A stretch of 11,153 nucleotides of DNA from a virus (Duplodnaviria > Heunggongvirae > Uroviricota > Caudoviricetes), in the IMG/VR virus record IMGVR_UViG_2541047938_000007, positions 1 to 11,153 of that record. One strand, given 5' to 3'. Below, one piece after another: positions 678 through 11,153 of the stretch. The notes below the pieces were generated by a model that was not told where the DNA came from, ran no database searches, and saw nothing but the letters and a program-made list of their open reading frames with translations. The translations under genes and the position numbers were made by a program. The first letter of the stretch is position 1. Every line of letters begins with the position of its first letter.

Positions 678-1040
678 ATGTTAAAACTTTTTGCTAAGTA
701 CACATCGATTGGCGTACTCAACACGCTCATTCACTGGGTTGTGTTTGGTGTTTGCGTGTATGGACTATCAACAAGCCAGGCATTGGCTAACTTCGCTGGC
801 TTCGTCGTCGCAGTGAGCTTCAGTTTCTACGCTAATGCACGGTTCACCTTCAATGCTTCAACATCTACCCTGCGCTATATGCTCTATGTGGGCTTTATGG
901 GCACGCTGAGTGCTGCGGTAGGTTGGGCTGCTGACAGGTGTGGGTTACCGCCAATCGTCACACTGGTGGCGTTCTCAGCCATTAGCCTTGTATGTGGCTT
1001 TTTCTATTCTAAGTTCATTGTCTTTAGGGAAGCGAAATGA
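678..1040 (+). CDS. gtrA: GtrA, bactoprenol-linked glucose translocase (flippase) of O-antigen glucosylation systems
   Basis: 120-aa, very hydrophobic small protein with about four predicted TM segments. ATG at 678; stop overlaps the gtrB start (ATGA at 1037-1040). Size, hydropathy and sequence resemble GtrA/YfdG of serotype-converting phages (recalled). First gene of a three-gene gtr triad. Confidence 0.88.
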
Positions 1041-1948
1041 AAATTTCTCTGGTCGTTCCGGTCTTCAATGAAGAGGCCACGATACCGATTTTCTATAAAA
1101 CGGTGCGAGAGTTCGAGGGGCTAAAGCAATACGATGTTGAAATCGTGTTCATTAATGACGGAAGCAAAGACGCAACAGAATCAATTATTAATGCGCTTGC
1201 TGTTTCTGACTCGTTAGTTACCCCGCTCTCATTTACCAGGAACTTTGGCAAAGAGCCAGCTCTGTTTGCCGGGCTTGAGCACGCTACTGGCGATGCTGTA
1301 ATTCCGATTGATGTTGACCTGCAAGATCCGATTGAAGTCATCCCTCACCTGATTGAGAAATGGCATTCGGGTGCCGATATGGTACTGGCAAAACGCTCTG
1401 ATCGTTCTACTGATAGCAGGCTTAAGCGTAAGTCTGCTGAATGGTTCTACAAGCTGCACAATAAAATTAGCTCACCAAAAATTGAAGAAAACGTTGGCGA
1501 TTTTCGTCTGATGTCTCGCGAAGTTGTCGAAAACATTAAGCAATTACCAGAGCGCAATCTATTCATGAAAGGCGTTCTTAGTTGGGTTGGTGGAAGGACT
1601 GATGTCGTCGAATATGCACGTGCAGAGCGTGTCGCTGGAGATTCCAAATTTAATGGCTGGAAGCTTTGGAACCTTGCCCTTGAAGGCATTACAAGCTTCT
1701 CAACATTCCCATTACGTATGTGGACGTACATTGGATTATTTGTTGCTGGACTTTCATTCCTTTATGGCGCATGGATGATTTTAGATAAGATTCTTTTTGG
1801 CAACAGCGTTCCAGGCTACCCATCACTACTCGTTTCTATCCTGTTCCTGGGAGGCATACAACTTATAGGTATAGGGGTACTTGGTGAATACATTGGAAGA
1901 ATCTATGTGGAAGTAAAGAACCGACCGCGATATATTAAGAAAGGTTAA
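1037..1948 (+). CDS. gtrB: GtrB, bactoprenol glucosyltransferase (GT-2 family)
   Basis: 303 aa. N-terminal GT-2 features ([15 protein letters not shown], DxD-like IPIDVDLQD) and C-terminal hydrophobic helices. Translationally coupled to gtrA. Typical GtrB/YfdH size and order. Confidence 0.9.
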
Positions 1949-1952
1949 TTTC

Positions 1953-3320
1953 ATGAATATTAAGCTTGATGCTAAATTTTTATTCTTTGGTGCGCCATTA
2001 TTTTTTTATTTCCCTTTTATTATCAATGGTGTTTTATATAGAGATGATATAAATCGAGCAACAGAGAATTTTACATACTGGTCTTGGCTGGGAAGACCAG
2101 TATCAGATTTAATTTGGAAAGTCCTATCTTTAGGAGGTCAAGGACCACTCTTAGAACCATTGACGATTATATTATCTATTTTTATATTGGGTTTTTCAGT
2201 AAATCTGTTTTATCAAAAAACCAATCACTTATTTCATGACGCAGGTCCTTTTGTATATATTTTATTAGTAATATCTCCATTTTACACTCAAAATATTTCA
2301 TATCAATATGATGGCATAACGATGTCAATCGCAGTTGCATGCGCACTGATTGCCACAATTGTCACACTGAAAGAAAACTTAATATCATATTTAGTTCACT
2401 GCGCTTTGCTTGTTATAGCAATGTCAATTTATCAGACAACTCTAAATATGTTTGCAATCCTTTCTTTGGCAATTATTTTCGCGAAGACTTGCACACACAA
2501 AGCACTGCCATTGAAATATTTAGCATGCATCGCCTCATCTTTTGTTCTTGCGTTAATTTTATATAAATTTCTAATTATAGATGTATTTATTTCATCCTCA
2601 CGAAGTGACATATCACTAGACAATCTCCACACAAACTTCATTAACTTCTCATCAATTATAGCATCACCATTTAGAGGTTATTTAGTTTCAATATTTTATT
2701 GCATTGTCGCCTTATCTTTTTATTCTTTAATAAGAAAGAGAGGTGTTTTGATTGGAGTAACGTTCCTTTTCTTCTGTGTAATGGCATTCTGTTTAATTGC
2801 AGGTCCATTTATTTTACTAAAAGAAGGGATTGCAGAGCCTAGAATGTTATTAGGATTCTCACCATTTATATTTCTCTGCCTTTACCCACTTAGAGGGAGA
2901 ATCTCAACAGTATCTTCTGTGATAGTTTTTTCTGTATTTACAATAATATCTTACCAATGTGCCTCTTCAATTAAAACACAGAATGATTATGAAAAATCGC
3001 TTGCCATGCAATCCTCTCAGGAAATTATTAACGCGGTAAAGGAAAAGTCTTCAAAGGTTTATATACAAGGCGAATTTCCGCTATCAAAAATATCCAAAAA
3101 CTCTGCGGCGGATAATGAGTTCATTAACAAAATGATTGCCCCCTCCCCTTGGTATACAAGAATGTTAATTAACATTTATTATCCCGGAACTGTACACATT
3201 GATTGGAAGGGAAAATACTTATCTAGTCACGAATTAGAAAAATGCAATGTCTTAAAGAGTAATATCTTACTAACTATATATAACTGTAATAATATTACCT
3301 ACGTTGAAATTCACAAATAA
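1953..3320 (+). CDS. serotype-specific O-antigen glucosyltransferase (GtrC / type-specific Gtr family), polytopic membrane protein
   Basis: 455-aa ORF starting 5 nt after the gtrB stop. Highly hydrophobic N-terminal two-thirds with a more hydrophilic C-terminal domain. Markedly AT-rich relative to gtrA/gtrB, as is typical for the variable third gene of gtr operons. Exact type not recognised. Confidence 0.7.
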   Translation: MNIKLDAKFLFFGAPLFFYFPFIINGVLYRDDINRATENFTYWSWLGRPVSDLIWKVLSLGGQGPLLEPLTIILSIFILGFSVNLFYQKTNHLFHDAGPFVYILLVISPFYTQNISYQYDGITMSIAVACALIATIVTLKENLISYLVHCALLVIAMSIYQTTLNMFAILSLAIIFAKTCTHKALPLKYLACIASSFVLALILYKFLIIDVFISSSRSDISLDNLHTNFINFSSIIASPFRGYLVSIFYCIVALSFYSLIRKRGVLIGVTFLFFCVMAFCLIAGPFILLKEGIAEPRMLLGFSPFIFLCLYPLRGRISTVSSVIVFSVFTIISYQCASSIKTQNDYEKSLAMQSSQEIINAVKEKSSKVYIQGEFPLSKISKNSAADNEFINKMIAPSPWYTRMLINIYYPGTVHIDWKGKYLSSHELEKCNVLKSNILLTIYNCNNITYVEIHK

Positions 3321-5369: not shown

Positions 5370-7592
5370 TTAAGAAATGTTGCCGGGGTAAGTGGCATTA
5401 TCATATTGATAGAAAGAGTCGCGATATTCTTTGGCTGTTACCTGACATGTTCCGTCAGACTGCGGTGATATCTCTGAGATTAGTGCACTGTAACCAACAC
5501 GTGAAGATTCGCAGAATATAAGACGTGGAGGTTCTATCGATTGATCATTCAGTATGATGCCAATGAACTCATCCTGTTCAGATACCGATAGTTCATAATC
5601 ACTAACTTTAGTAACTGGAAGCAGACCAGAAGCTGATCCATCCTGGTAGCGAATCAATGCGCGAGGATTGTTGAATGTCCAGTCAAGAGGCTCTGAAACT
5701 GTGAATGTCGTTACGCCGCCACTCGTACTCATATCATCGATCAATGTGCTTATTGTTTTGCTACCAGGAATGTCATCAGTAAACACAATTCTGTCACCTA
5801 CGCTATAGCAAAGTGCATCCATTTCCGTGGTCGTTGTATGGGTAAGACGCTGCTGCCTGTACTTCATCAGTCGTCGCATACCTATCTGATAAGCCCTGTC
5901 CTGGTCAAGAACACCATCAAGATCGTAATCTTCTATTTTCACTGGCGTAGGATTGTCAGACGTTCTGCACTGAACAGTCTCTTCAGCCCACGTAGTGCCG
6001 TTAATGTAAGTGACATCCACTCCATCATAATCATCGGCTGATGGTGCAACGAAGGCCGTTTGAAGCGCTTCTGTCATTTCCTGCGGACTAATTATTCCCG
6101 TCCACGTTTTTACCCCCTCCCTTCCCACTGAAGCCATACCGTCAGACAGCAGAAAATAGCTTTTACCTGCGTTAGTGACTTTCTGTAGCATTTCAAGCGC
6201 GGAAACTGAGTCGGTTGTTGCGTAATCGAAAAACTCGCTATCAGGCGTCCAGTAAGATGATTCCAGCATATCAATCACTTCGTTATCCATCGCAAGCCCT
6301 AACTCATTACCAATGTGGTAAAGCGCGCCTGAAATGCTCCTGGAAATACCGGAATCATAAATGCGTGTGGCGACTACGTTGACACGGCGATCAGACTGAG
6401 CGGCAAGCTTTCCACCTGTTTCGACTGAGACAGCCATAGTGGTTACACCAGAGTATGATGATGGTCTTGAAAGCAACCTCCCCCTTAATGACTGCCAGTA
6501 CATGTTATCCCTGCTGTTATCCTGGCCTTGTTCGTTCGTTCTCCTGCATCTAACCTCCACCAAACCGGCCGATGCCAGCGTGATACGTTCGGTAAAACCT
6601 AACCCATTAATATTTTGCTGATTGTAAGACCCAGTTTTGCTTGTCCATCCTGAACCCGAACCGTAAACACGGTACTGAATTTCCCACTGAACAATCCTGT
6701 TCTGCTTCTTGCCTTTCTTGTTATACCCGCAAATACCGTTAGCCAGGTCAACAACGCCGCCAACCAGGTCAGTTAGTCCCTGAATCACCTGAGGGTCTTT
6801 GAAAACATCGCCCATGTCAGTGATCGCATTCTGTAATCCTGACAGGTCAACATTTGCAAGACCGGTAGCAATCTCAATTTTTACGCCGTTAACCTGCGTC
6901 TCCATGTCTTCAAACAGGGAGTTTACTTTCACCAGTTTTTCGATGTCTGCATCATCAGGGGCAACACCAAACTGCTTTGCCGCGTCCATGTACTGGCGAA
7001 GCTTTTCACCACCCTGATCAAGTAAGGGCAGGAGCTTTGACAGGTCATTACCAAGGCTTTCGAGAATGGTTGTTTTTTCGGCGTTTGTTTTTATCTTACC
7101 AAGAGCATCGCTGATAGCGAGAAGTTGTTTATCAGGTGACTCACCGGCTAATTTTTTTGCGGATAATCCAAGCGCATCAAGCGCACCGACAGCTTCACCA
7201 GATTTATTTAAGACCGCATCACCAATCTTATCGCCAATATCTTTAAAGATATCGGCCATCTGGTCACCAGATACCCCAGCCTTTTCGGCTGCATACTGCC
7301 AAGCCAGCAGAGACTGAGTAGACATATTGAGCGACTTAGCCCAACGGTCTGTTTCAGTGATCTGTTTGGAAGTGGTTTTCAGCAGGTTATAACCAGCAAC
7401 GCCTACACCAATTGCCGCAGCGCTTGCTGCTGTCGCAAAAGCGGTGAACGCGGTGGCCGCAGCCTTGGCGTCGGATTGTACCTGTTTACGCCATTTTTGA
7501 GATGCTCGCTCAGACTGGCTTAGGCCAGAGACAAAACCACCAACCTTAGCAACAAGGTCGATAGTCAACGTGCCGAGGGATTTACCAGCCAT
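5370..7592 (-). CDS. tail protein: tape-measure-like N-terminal region fused in frame to a host-specificity (lambda J-like) region
   Basis: 740 aa. ATG at 7592..7590 lies 1 nt after the stop of the GT frameshift product, the expected tape-measure position. Residues 1 to about 290 are Ala/Lys/Gly-rich and coiled-coil-like, typical of a tape-measure N-terminus. From about residue 300 there are J-like motifs (LRGRLL...PSSY; AYQIGMRRL...FSVGDRIVFTDD; PPRLIFCESSRV), aligned by eye to the central part of lambda J. Confidence 0.65.
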   Translation of the reverse strand: MAGKSLGTLTIDLVAKVGGFVSGLSQSERASQKWRKQVQSDAKAAATAFTAFATAASAAAIGVGVAGYNLLKTTSKQITETDRWAKSLNMSTQSLLAWQYAAEKAGVSGDQMADIFKDIGDKIGDAVLNKSGEAVGALDALGLSAKKLAGESPDKQLLAISDALGKIKTNAEKTTILESLGNDLSKLLPLLDQGGEKLRQYMDAAKQFGVAPDDADIEKLVKVNSLFEDMETQVNGVKIEIATGLANVDLSGLQNAITDMGDVFKDPQVIQGLTDLVGGVVDLANGICGYNKKGKKQNRIVQWEIQYRVYGSGSGWTSKTGSYNQQNINGLGFTERITLASAGLVEVRCRRTNEQGQDNSRDNMYWQSLRGRLLSRPSSYSGVTTMAVSVETGGKLAAQSDRRVNVVATRIYDSGISRSISGALYHIGNELGLAMDNEVIDMLESSYWTPDSEFFDYATTDSVSALEMLQKVTNAGKSYFLLSDGMASVGREGVKTWTGIISPQEMTEALQTAFVAPSADDYDGVDVTYINGTTWAEETVQCRTSDNPTPVKIEDYDLDGVLDQDRAYQIGMRRLMKYRQQRLTHTTTTEMDALCYSVGDRIVFTDDIPGSKTISTLIDDMSTSGGVTTFTVSEPLDWTFNNPRALIRYQDGSASGLLPVTKVSDYELSVSEQDEFIGIILNDQSIEPPRLIFCESSRVGYSALISEISPQSDGTCQVTAKEYRDSFYQYDNATYPGNIS

Positions 7593-7593
7593 G

Positions 7594-8237
7594 CTATGTC
7601 CACTCCTGCATAGCCTGTTCCAGTGAAATGGAAGGCTCGTTAATGTGTGGTGTGAAGTCTGTTACTTTGAAGTGGGGTGAATCTTTTCCACGGTTGACGT
7701 TTGCCAGCACAGAAGAAATTAGGCCAGCGGCCCACTCGGTACGCATCATTCCGTTAAGGCTTCCGTACTTTTGACGGTAAAGAACCCAGTCGCGATACTC
7801 TGTAACGCTAACGCGTTCTTTTGCTTCAGCAATGGTGCGGCCGCCGATCCCGTTGAGAACTAATTCACACCAGAATTCGTCGTCTGCGCTGAGTTCGCCT
7901 TTCCCAGGTCGTTAACCTGCTGAATAGCGACAAGCAGAGCAACCGTAAGAGCACCATCGAGTGCGCCGCGCTCAGGATCTGCTTCACCAGTGATATCGGC
8001 AACAGTGAAAACTGGAGCGCCATTTTCATCACAGATGGATGCAGCGATACGCCCTGCTACACCATCAATTTTCCCCACCGCTGAAAGAACATTTGATACC
8101 GCGTCGTGATAACCCATTGGTCGGATATAAACGGTAGCTGTGATCTCTTTATCGCCCTGCTTCCAGGTGATTTCCTTCTCAACAGGACGACCAGTAAACG
8201 CCCCTGCCTGTTTTAACGAATCCAGATTCAGTTTCAT
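7594..8237 (-). CDS. tail assembly chaperone G-T fusion made by programmed -1 ribosomal frameshift
   Basis: The -1 frame stays open from the heptamer GGGAAAG (7905..7899, minus strand) for about 100 codons to a TAG at 7596..7594, which ends 1 nt before the next gene's ATG. This is the same arrangement and the same heptamer as lambda G/GT. Confidence 0.6.
7860..8237 (-). CDS. tail assembly chaperone (lambda gpG analogue)
   Basis: 125 aa, ATG at 8237..8235 with GAGAGGAAAG upstream. Sits immediately upstream of the tape-measure-like gene. Contains the slippery heptamer G GGA AAG 13 codons before its stop. Confidence 0.75.
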   Translation of the reverse strand: MKLNLDSLKQAGAFTGRPVEKEITWKQGDKEITATVYIRPMGYHDAVSNVLSAVGKIDGVAGRIAASICDENGAPVFTVADITGEADPERGALDGALTVALLVAIQQVNDLGKANSAQTTNSGVN

Positions 8238-8254
8238 TTCTTTCCTCTCAGTTT

Positions 8255-8270
8255 GCGGGGTTTCCCCCGC
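8255..8270 (-). repeat. GC hairpin copy 1 (mRNA sense GCGGGG-gaaa-CCCCGC), between the major-tail-like ORF and the G gene
   Basis: 6-bp stem with a GNRA-type GAAA loop on the late transcript, followed by the RBS and ATG of the chaperone gene. Identical core to the copy at 8943-8960. Confidence 0.5.
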
Positions 8271-8287
8271 TTATTAATGCCTGGTTA

Positions 8288-8689
8288 TTAGCTCGTTGGT
8301 TGGGCCTTTGGAACCCAAACACCTTGCCCTGAACGCTGAATGGTTGCGGAAGTTTGCACGACCGTATTCGCCTGGAAGTCGAACGGGAAATCTGAAACAT
8401 AACCCTGGAATACATACCAGGTACGTGTATCCGGCAGAGAAAGACCATCAACTGCATCTGGATCACCAGACGTCGCTACCGTTGGTTCATCCGTTCCGTC
8501 AGCCCAGCCAATAGCGAAGGTCAGGTTTGTCTGGTCACTGGATTCAGCCAGGTTGCTCAGCATTACATGGCTGGAGTTTGCCGGGTCTGCGTTAAGAGCT
8601 ACAGTAGCCTGACCGGGGGTGCGCAGACCTTTTTTGTAGGAACGAGTATTGGTTTCACTCAGACAGGTATCTTCAATCTGGTCTGACAA
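8288..8689 (-). CDS. major tail protein-like ORF, possibly 5'-truncated (lambda V position)
   Basis: 133-aa ORF in the ORF track that actually starts at a TTG with no convincing RBS. Occupies the position just upstream of G/GT, and has weak by-eye resemblance to the lambda V core. It is in the same frame as the upstream 56-aa ORF, separated by a single TGA. May be a remnant rather than an intact gene. Confidence 0.4.
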
Positions 8690-8764
8690 AGGAAAATATC
8701 GGAGTCCAACCGCGAGATGATGGTTGCTGTAGTGCTTTCTCTTTCCGTCTAAAAGGATTCCACA

Positions 8765-8935
8765 TCAGCCATTCTCCGCGTTTTCTTTTTTACTTTTACG
8801 CACCACTGCTTTTTTGCTGGTTACGTATTCCGCCTTTTTCAGCAGAACCAGCACCTTTGCGCACTGGTCATTCACAATTTTCTCATCACCTGGCAATGAG
8901 TCATGTGTACGCTGAAGGTATCTGATTTTTGCCAT
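8765..8935 (-). CDS. small Lys-rich hypothetical ORF (56 aa)
   Basis: ATG at 8935..8933 sits 5 nt after the hairpin at 8943-8960. A strong SD-like GAAGGAGG lies immediately upstream of that hairpin. Not in the supplied ORF track (shorter than 60 aa). Coding status uncertain. Confidence 0.3.
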   Translation of the reverse strand: MAKIRYLQRTHDSLPGDEKIVNDQCAKVLVLLKKAEYVTSKKAVVRKSKKENAENG

Positions 8936-8942
8936 TTGAAAT

Positions 8943-8960
8943 GGCGGGGTTTCCCCCGCC
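8943..8960 (-). repeat. GC hairpin copy 2 (mRNA sense GGCGGGG-gaaa-CCCCGCC), between the structural-gene fragment and the 56-aa ORF
   Basis: 7-bp stem with GAAA loop, same core as copy 1. On the mRNA it is flanked by GAAGGAG upstream and an AUG 5 nt downstream. Confidence 0.5.
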
Positions 8961-8967
8961 CTCCTTC

Positions 8968-9468
8968 TTAGCTGGTTGAGCCAGTGCTGTAATCCACGTC
9001 AGAGATAACGGCTACGGCTGCATCACGGCGACGCTTCCAGTTAATCCAACGCTCGGCACGGATTGCCACGCTGTTGGTCTGGAACATAGACACCAGTTCA
9101 ACTGGAGTTGGCGTTGTGCTGTCGTGGGTCGGATCGCTCTGCATTTCCAGAGAAGCTTCGCGAGACATATCAACGGCGACGCCGCCATCATCTGCCAGAT
9201 AAACATCTGGTGCGTTAACCAGTACCAGTTGGTTGCCAACGTACTGTGAAACGATCACCGGCAAGCCCTGGAACGTACCGCCCAGCATGGTCATATCTGG
9301 GTATTCTTTCTGACCAAGCGCGTTTTTACGCATAGACAGAGTAAGTGCCGTAGTGCTGGACATCAGCCATACCGCACCATTCGGCTGCAGGTTGTTCGTA
9401 ATGAACTGACCAAATGCTGCAGAAGCATCAGTACAGGCTAACCATGAGCATAGTTCGATGTCACGCGT
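8968..9468 (-). pseudogene. 5'-truncated phage structural gene fragment (capsid or head-tail protein-like C-terminal part)
   Basis: The reading frame is open from 9468 down to the TAA at 8970..8968. The annotated ATG at 9363 has no RBS and is probably an internal Met. The fragment runs head-on into the 5' end of the integrase fragment. Family assignment is tentative. Confidence 0.4.
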
Positions 9469-10057
9469 TTACAGGTGGGGATATCAACGTGGATTTGTGC
9501 CAGGCAACCCATGCGTAGGCGTCGATAAATACCCTAAACCTCAGCGCGACCGATACATTACGGATGAAGAGTATTTAGCGATTTATGACTGTGCTACTGA
9601 TCCGGTCAAAGCAGCAATGGAAATTGCTTATCTCTGTGCCGCCAGGGTTTCCGATGTTCTGAAAATGGACTGGAATCAGATAATGGATAAAGGAATTTTC
9701 ATTCAACAGGGTAAAACTGGAGTTAAGCAGATTAAAGCGTGGACAGACCGTTTGCATTCAGCAGTCAATCTTTGCAGGAAATCAGGGGAAGATGGCGCTG
9801 TCATCAAAACCATGTACGGAGAGCGATATTCCTATAAAGGTTTCAATGAAGCCTGGAGAAAGGCGAGAAATGCGGCTGCTGAAAAAATTGGCAGACCGTT
9901 AGACTGCACGTTCCATGATCTGAAGGCGAAAGGCATTTCTGACTATGAAGGAAGTGGCCGCGATAAGCAAAAATTCAGTGGTCACAAAACTGAATCACAG
10001 GTGCTGGTATACGACAGGAAAGTAAAAATCAGCCCAACTTTGAACAGAAAAATGTGA
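9458..10057 (+). pseudogene. tyrosine recombinase (phage integrase), C-terminal catalytic-domain fragment, 5'-truncated
   Basis: 199-aa ORF with catalytic-domain features (AARVSDV Arg region, HDLKAKG, GHKTESQVLVYDR with the C-terminal Tyr). Lacks the N-terminal arm-binding and core-binding domains; there is an in-frame stop at 9407-9409 just upstream. It is transcribed toward the 3' end of the adjacent tRNA, as expected for an int next to attL. Confidence 0.8.
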
Positions 10058-10069
10058 GTTTGAGATACA

Positions 10070-10099
10070 GCGCCGGGTGCAAATCTGGCGTTATTTTTT
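10070..10099 (+). terminator. putative Rho-independent terminator downstream of the integrase fragment
   Basis: Stem CGCCGG / CTGGCG (one G-U pair) with an 8-nt loop, followed by TTATTTTTT, starting 13 nt after the int stop. Confidence 0.5.
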
Positions 10100-10126
10100 C
10101 TCAGTGGATTTTCTCATTTTTTCTCA
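10093..10126. repeat. direct repeats ATTTTTTCTCA (x2, plus a third TTTTCTC) between int and the tRNA 3' end; candidate att-arm/IHF-type sites
   Basis: ATTTTTTCTCA at 10093-10103 and 10116-10126, with TTTTCTC also at 10109-10115. Located in the expected attL arm region. Function not demonstrable from sequence. Confidence 0.3.
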
Positions 10127-10172
10127 ACGGGATGTTGGTCACTGAATCGAAACACTGTAAGTGCTTGAATGG

Positions 10173-10262
10173 TGGCGGAGAGAGGGGGATTTGAACCCCC
10201 GGTAGAGTTGCCCCTACTCCGGTTTTCGAGACCGGTCCGTTCAGCCGCTCCGGCATCTCTCC
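10173..10262 (-). tRNA. serU: tRNA-Ser (anticodon CGA)
   Basis: The minus strand reads GGAGAGATGCCGGAGCGGCTGAACGGACCGGTCTCGAAAACCGGAGTAGGGGCAACTCTACCGGGGGTTCAAATCCCCCTCTCTCCGCCA (90 nt). It has a 7-bp acceptor stem, anticodon stem CCGGT/ACCGG with loop CUCGAAA (anticodon CGA), a long variable arm, a T-loop GGTTCAAATCC, and an encoded CCA. Confidence 0.9.
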
Positions 10263-10355
10263 GTTCAGATGGTTGCCATGATGCCAGGAAATTTGGCATT
10301 TTAACAGTCCCTGTCCGTGCAATTTTGTTCAAGTGACGAGTTTGCGAGCAAAACG

Positions 10356-11153
10356 ATGATTAAGTGGCCCTGGAAAGTACAAGAATCAGCACATCAAACT
10401 GCCCTTCCCTGGCAGGAAGCACTATCGATCCCCCTTTTAACGTGTCTGACGGAACAGGAACAAAGCAAATTAGTCACTCTTGCCGAACGTTTTTTACAGC
10501 AAAAGCGGCTTGTTCCTTTACAGGGCTTTGAACTGGATTCATTAAGAACCTGCCGGATAGCACTTCTATTTTGCCTACCCGTTCTGGAATTAGGACTGGA
10601 ATGGCTGGATGGTTTTCATGAAGTCTTAATTTATCCTGCGCCATTTGTGGTCGATGATGAATGGGAAGACGATATCGGTCTGGTGCATAACCAACGTATT
10701 GTTCAGTCAGGTCAGAGCTGGCAGCAAGGGCCTATCGTTTTGAACTGGTTGGATATACAAGATTCTTTTGATGCTTCTGGTTTTAACCTGATTATTCATG
10801 AAGTCGCTCATAAGCTGGACACCCGTAACGGCGATCGCGCCAGCGGAGTTCCCTTTATTCCGTTGCGTGAGGTTGCTGGCTGGGAACACGATCTTCATGC
10901 TGCAATGAACAACATTCAGGAAGAAATCGAATTGGTTGGCGAGAATGCGGCGAGCATTGATGCTTATGCTGCCAGTGATCCTGCTGAATGTTTTGCCGTA
11001 CTTTCTGAATATTTCTTTAGCGCCCCAGAACTTTTTGCTCCTCGTTTCCCTTCATTGTGGCAACGTTTCTGCCAATTTTATCAACAAGATCCTTTGCAGA
11101 GACTGCATCACGCTAATGATACAGACTCGTTTTCGGCGACGAATGTTCATTAA
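10356..11153 (+). CDS. mtfA: MtfA (Mlc titration factor A), zinc-dependent peptidase
   Basis: 265-aa ORF from the ATG at 10356 (MIKWPWKV...); the ORF-track start at 10317 is a GTG extension. Contains the HEXXH zinc-peptidase motif ([10 protein letters not shown]). Matches E. coli MtfA/YeeI as recalled. Complete, with TAA at 11151-11153. Confidence 0.9.

Follow-up and report, generated by a model that had tools for sequence, protein, structure and literature searches.

Tail genes and layout of the prophage remnant

The window analysed here, that is the whole stretch of 11,153 nucleotides, carries a 10.4 kb prophage remnant from E. coli at tRNA-Ser(cga), between zinT/yodB and mtfA. The features of the locus are collected in Table 1; all the genes of the G/GT region lie on the minus strand. 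In intact E. coli relatives the gene order is capsid, connectors, tube, G, T, tape measure, three small tail genes, TipJ and tailspike. The remnant has no neck, lysis or regulatory genes left, and it has lost the distal tail genes and almost all of the head genes. In addition to the genes of the table, it holds an ORF of 56 aa and the ends of two further genes: the last 131 codons of the capsid gene and the last 199 of the integrase, which has lost about 130 N-terminal codons, with a breakpoint near 9433.

Table 1. Features of the remnant, with positions counted in the window
Feature	Position	Strand	Remarks
G-like tail assembly chaperone ORF, zero-frame product	7860..8237	-	125 aa + stop; from ORF list and translation
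Slippery heptamer G GGA AAG	7899..7905	-	X XXY YYZ phase; codons 111-113 CTG GGA AAG
-1 frame extension (T domain)	7594..7905	-	103 codons, GGG to TAG 7596..7594
ATG-initiated ORF inside the -1 frame, 51 codons	7597..7749	-	'tail assembly protein T' of annotation pipelines
Whole G/GT unit	7594..8237	-	predicted frameshift fusion GT of 214 aa
Shine-Dalgarno-like GAGAGG	8244..8249	-	6 nt 5' of the G start codon; read from the sequence
5'-truncated major tail tube gene	8288..8685	-	about 33 codons missing, without ATG; breakpoint 8685/8686
Tape-measure::TipJ in-frame fusion ORF, 740 aa	5370..7592	-	breakpoint 6741
gtrABC operon, intact	678-3320	+	O-antigen glucosylation; far end of the remnant
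Tailspike gene	5312->3354	-	
GC-rich hairpin GCGGGG-(loop)-CCCCGC	8255..8270	.	between the tube fragment and G

Breakpoints of the remnant are three in number (6741, 8685/8686 and about 9433), and two of them flank the G/GT module. Alignments of the tube gene to intact relatives end at 8685; the fragment covers positions 36-154 of the 154 positions of the Pfam profile Phage_TTP_11, and the ORF of one intact relative (L006) is 165 aa long. On the other side, the fusion ORF joins the N-terminal ~284 codons of the tape-measure gene to the C-terminal ~456 codons of the TipJ tail-tip protein, and matches PHROG 2854 (TMP) at positions 1-289 of 855 and PHROG 469 at positions 425-902 of 903. About 4.4 kb of tail genes were removed by the deletion behind this fusion, with little or no microhomology at the junction. 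The truncations that the original prediction had placed on both sides of the module are thus real, the tube gene being short of 33 codons and the tape measure ending at about codon 284. As the tube protein is truncated and the tape measure is without its C-terminal two thirds, most likely no tail is left to build.

Two 62-bp copies of the 3' end region of tRNA-Ser(cga) flank the element as a direct repeat, one at 10172-10233 of the window and the other at 17725-17786 of L085, ~130-190 nt to the left of window position 1. Both att sites have therefore been kept. The intact gtrABC operon is probably the reason why the island persists. The hairpin listed in Table 1 recurs at 8943-8960, after the capsid fragment, and reads GGCGGGG-GAAA-CCCCGCC on the sense strand; neither copy (8255-8270, 8943-8960) is followed by a T-run on the sense strand. 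The capsid and tube genes are the two most abundant structural genes, and a hairpin placed after the fragments of both could be an mRNA-stabilising or attenuating element.

The slip site and its two-domain product

Translation of the region bore out every sequence statement that had been made about G/GT. The heptamer lies 13 codons ahead of the G stop (Lys at codon 113, stop at codon 126), in the zero-frame context GAC CTG GGA AAG GCG. The -1 frame, which had been predicted to be open for about 100 codons and is open for 103 by count, ends 1 nt ahead of the next gene, with TAG followed by C at 7593 and ATG at 7592. Upstream, it is closed by TAA until 7911, two codons 5' of the heptamer, so that the -1 ORF extends over 7594-7911 and overlaps the zero-frame G by 16 codons. 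The heptamer is identical to that of lambda (GGGAAAG, J02459 10109-10115), and its phase is the same.

The single GGGAAAG of the window is that of G/GT. Against shuffled sequence, one occurrence is to be compared with 1.24 expected on both strands of the window (22 kb), which is no excess over chance. The placement of the heptamer was compared with that of all 94 XXXYYYZ heptamers on both strands, the features scored being a long zero-frame ORF upstream, a zero-frame stop nearby and a -1 frame running at least 50 codons beyond that stop. Only the G/GT site combines all three. The signal is in the placement of the heptamer and not in its bare presence.

The product of the -1 frame belongs to the tail assembly protein T family. 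A profile search, which had been proposed as a check, gave a match to Pfam Phage_tail_T (PF06223) of 40.8 bits against a cut-off of 25.9 (E 3e-10), covering residues 33-100 of the -1 product and positions 1-70 of the 73 in the profile; lambda T scores 54.1 bits in the same family. The -1 product also matches the tail protein family PHROG 337 (E 4e-24). G itself is a member of Pfam Phage_TAC_13 (PF16459), with 119.6 bits against a threshold of 28.8 (E 7.8e-35) over the full profile, positions 1-98, and of the tail assembly chaperone family PHROG 1749 (E 1.3e-46). No match of G to PF06894 (Phage_TAC_2), the family of lambda gpG, was obtained even at E<=1, whereas lambda G scores 206.9 bits. The comparison of GT with lambda GT was not significant either by blastp (E 0.034) or by hhalign with a 9-sequence GT profile (probability 0.4%), so that homology to lambda rests on the Pfam T model alone. 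Among the NCBIfam models there was none for G, the -1 product or the 51-aa ORF. A phmmer search of GT against PDB sequences returned only noise (E >= 0.06), and therefore no relative of solved structure was found by sequence. The single-sequence AlphaFold2 model of G had a pLDDT of 41 and was unusable for fold comparison.

The closest cultured phages are HK022, HK140, mEpX2 and mEp235, with 70% identity to GT over its whole 214 aa, followed by Klebsiella phages (~64%) and Pseudomonas phage D3 (61%). A nucleotide search of the phage collection by megablast with 7400-8700 gave no matches, and HK022 was found only by searching at the protein level. In HK022 (Hendrixvirinae), gp13/gp14 carries GGGAAAG at the homologous N-(D/N)-L-G-K position, as does D3, and its genes follow the same order of tube, G/GT and tape measure. 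GenBank gives HK022 gp14 as a join, the downstream part of a translational frameshift product, with the wording 'presumed'. The zero-frame G of HK022 extends 49 codons beyond the slip site (161 aa) compared with 13 in the window (125 aa), and HK022 is a complete phage whereas the copy in the window lies inside a deleted remnant.

The wider family with Phage_TAC_13 and T domains, including orf17/orf18 of D3, has the same two-domain GT at 38-61% identity. The frames overlap as in the window in D3, Synechococcus phage Yong-L1-251, Halomonas phage QHHSV-1 and Pseudomonas phages PAJU2 and IME307; no frameshift is annotated in the records of these five. GGGAAAG is kept down to 42% GT identity, in Yong-L1-251 (46%) and QHHSV-1 (42%), whereas PAJU2 and IME307 (38%) have A AAA AAC at the equivalent place.

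The lambda G/G-T programmed -1 frameshift was reportedly worked out by Levin, Hendrix and Casjens in 1993 and by Xu, Hendrix and Duda in 2004, 2013 and 2014. Like the window, lambda has a -1 extension with a Phage_tail_T domain between the tube and tape-measure genes. Apart from the different families of G, the T extension is of 102 aa in the window against 144 in lambda, and lambda T overlaps the start of H, whereas a 1-nt gap separates the -1 frame from the next gene in the window. The module had been called lambda-type. This holds for the heptamer, the T family and the order of tube, G/GT and tape measure, but not for the G family, nor for GT as a whole, whose similarity to lambda GT is insignificant. 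By sequence similarity the module is of the HK022 gp13/gp14 type, lambdoid (Hendrixvirinae) but not strictly lambda-type.

The frameshift had also been taken to confirm a lambdoid siphovirus module. That conclusion stands, by virtue of the T domain, the TTP_11 tube and the similarity to HK022, but the frameshift alone is insufficient for it: most long-tailed phages, myoviruses included, have one (PMC5009743), so that by itself it is no proof of a lambdoid siphovirus.

The 2004 work of Xu, Hendrix and Duda is said to provide the reference definition of the tail assembly chaperone G/GT frameshift. In its terms, the locus has an overlapping pair of ORFs between the tube gene and the tape-measure gene. 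The second of these is read in the -1 frame and shares its beginning with the 3' end of the first, without a start codon of its own from which the whole conserved domain would be made. An X XXY YYZ heptamer in zero-frame phase lies inside the overlap, and slip site and arrangement are conserved among homologues beyond coding needs. The definition reportedly also includes that both G and GT are made at a fixed low ratio, and that both products are needed in tail assembly.

Conservation of the slip codons and expected slippage

Each of the 80 best IMG/VR relatives (75-99% G identity) has GGGAAAG in phase, together with a -1 ORF of 104-129 codons. In the same set the zero-frame G stop shifts, lying from 13 to 49 codons downstream of the slip site. 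Synonymous variation was then scored in 70 unique, collinear G sequences, at the 54 columns which combine an invariant amino acid with a degenerate code. It was absent from only two columns, Gly112 (GGA in 70/70) and Lys113 (AAG in 70/70). The other invariant Gly columns, nine in number, each make use of three or four codons, and at both of the other invariant Lys columns the two codons occur. Codon 111 is CTG, ATG or TTG and therefore its third base is always G. The seven bases of the slip site, and exactly those, are thus under selection at the nucleotide level. The GT of the window has no substitution in columns that are at least 90% conserved.

A second in-phase GGGAAAG is seen early in G, at codons 53-55 (GTG GGA AAG), in the relatives L007 and L016; the window reads GTG GGG AAA there. 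Slippage at this early site would truncate the product, since the scan for open -1 frames gave the 3' heptamer only in these loci.

Elements which might stimulate slippage were looked for on both sides of the heptamer. The 59 and 99 nt downstream in the window fold no better than shuffled sequences (z +0.37 and +0.53), and a stimulatory RNA structure there was rejected. Upstream, a perfect Shine-Dalgarno-like AGGAGGT is found 10 nt 5' of the heptamer in about half of the relatives (L033-L084 and others), with a pairing energy of -11.5 kcal/mol. The 10-nt spacing is that at which a Shine-Dalgarno sequence stimulates -1 slippage in dnaX. The element is encoded by Q-E-V, with GAG and GAA used in 35 and 7 cases. 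At the same place (7916-7923) the window has CAGCAGGT, which encodes Q-Q-V in its clade and pairs weakly (-4.6 kcal/mol). An upstream stimulator of this kind is not claimed for the window, as 16% of the 10-mers in G match or beat that energy. Transcriptional slippage was rejected, the A-run being of just three bases.

With no downstream structure and a weak upstream element, the efficiency of slippage at this site may be low, although lambda, too, is not known to require a downstream structure. In E. coli the sequence G_GGA_AAG is by itself highly prone to shifting, and lambda makes G and GT at a ratio of ~30:1 (PMC5009743). Reporter assays on prophage chaperone genes with similarity to an HK97 protein showed 6-7% frameshifting (PMC3711429).

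Reading of the module and its fate in the remnant

Taken as a whole, the sequence evidence points with high confidence to a tail assembly chaperone module of the HK022 gp13/gp14 type with a genuine site of programmed -1 frameshifting, which would work like that of lambda G/GT and which is intact in the remnant and most likely functionless there. At such a site most ribosomes translating the G ORF would stop at 7860 and yield the 125-aa chaperone. A few per cent would slip back by one nucleotide on G GGA AAG, where the tRNA-Gly in the P site would exchange its pairing with GGA for one with GGG, and the tRNA-Lys in the A site its pairing with AAG for one with AAA. After the slip, translation would run on for 102 codons and yield a G-T fusion of 214 aa. 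In a phage that is intact, the tape-measure protein is coated by G and by the G portion of GT, and the T domain recruits the tube protein. In the remnant the GT signal is intact as sequence, while its assembly function has most likely gone.

The original prediction had set the intactness of the module against the truncations around it. The contrast is real but without meaning, as 6742-8685 is one collinear block between two breakpoints. The block has no indels relative to its closest relatives in 1,946 bp, at 97% identity, and none of the ORFs retained in the remnant has a stop or frameshift. Scaffold KE702357.1 of NCBI assembly GCA_000461255.1 matches the window at 100% identity, and the remnant recurs in three Logan assemblies. 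Over 10 kb the four copies show at most 3 SNPs, all outside G/GT; as they are nearly identical, they allow no inference on selection since the deletions. The signal most likely survives because decay so far has consisted of three large deletions, and not because of maintenance. The prophage is decaying, and the module, in its undamaged block of 1.9 kb, is most likely a passive passenger in it.

At the same site, decay in sister strains has taken other courses. E. coli CUWW10 is without the tail block, in whose place IS1 elements are found, and its gtrB is split by IS1 (L002 4231-5918). E. coli Z142-3 has a related prophage with a deletion that fuses an HK97-gp10-like gene to the interior of the tape-measure gene (L003 13971-14380) and removes the tube gene and G/GT entirely.

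An improbable alternative is that the block is kept for the benefit of the host. Together with the tape-measure::TipJ fusion it would poison the tails of superinfecting HK022-like phages through an imbalance of G, GT and tape-measure protein, or it would serve as a spare part for recombination. Such a role would fit with the open state of every retained ORF, including the in-frame 740-aa fusion, with the Shine-Dalgarno sequence that G has of its own, with the intact neighbouring gtrABC operon as a reason for the island to persist, and with the need of lambda tail assembly for a balanced G:GT ratio (Xu et al. 2013, as cited in PMC5009743). However, the sense strand upstream, searched within 7400-10400, showed no sigma-70-like promoter, and the late promoter and its regulators are gone from the remnant. 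The near identity of the remnant copies makes them young, one of the sister strains lost the whole tail block to IS1 and another deleted G/GT, and an in-frame junction is expected by chance in one case out of three. The more specific proposal that G/GT and the fusion are expressed, and act as a dominant-negative decoy against tail assembly by an incoming HK022-like phage, is very unlikely; if true, it would be a defence built from leftover tail-assembly parts.

It is equally hard to believe that no frameshift takes place, the 51-aa T being made alone from the internal ATG at 7749 and the heptamer being incidental. PGAP and other pipelines do call this ORF 'phage tail assembly protein T', and the bare count of the heptamer in the window is not above chance. 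This ATG is, however, the only one in the -1 frame and lies inside the T domain; the Pfam match (from -1 residue 33) begins 20 codons upstream of it, so that the 51-aa ORF would hold just the C-terminal half of the domain. In all relatives the -1 frame 5' of this ATG encodes a conserved protein sequence (ELSADDEFWCELVLNGIGGRTI), the slip codons alone are frozen at synonymous sites, and the curators of HK022 annotate the join. Least of all can it be held that G and T were once a single ORF, and that the window has a pseudogene made by a 1-nt indel or a sequencing error in a prophage which, with three large deletions mapped, is clearly decaying: the two-frame arrangement is shared by all 80 of the best IMG/VR relatives, by intact E. 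coli prophages and by cultured phages of four host genera, and four independent assemblies of the remnant are identical across G/GT.

The reading of the locus as a passively retained HK022-type frameshift module is thus preferred. The G/GT frameshift signal is already known biology, a textbook case of recoding; the result adds one more prophage copy of it and in that respect matters little. Within the remnant, the site helps to define the origin of the element from an HK022-like siphovirus. The synonymous-site test provides a clean and cheap comparative signature for slip sites. In RefSeq (PGAP) and in a number of phage records of GenBank, T is given as the short 51-aa ATG ORF and the frameshift join is missing (for example L001 12195-12350 and L085 9844-9999, and also L091, L093 and L094); among the records inspected, the join is annotated only in HK022. 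As the records give only the 51-aa T, the GT proteins of the HK022 gp13/gp14-type family are systematically under-annotated.
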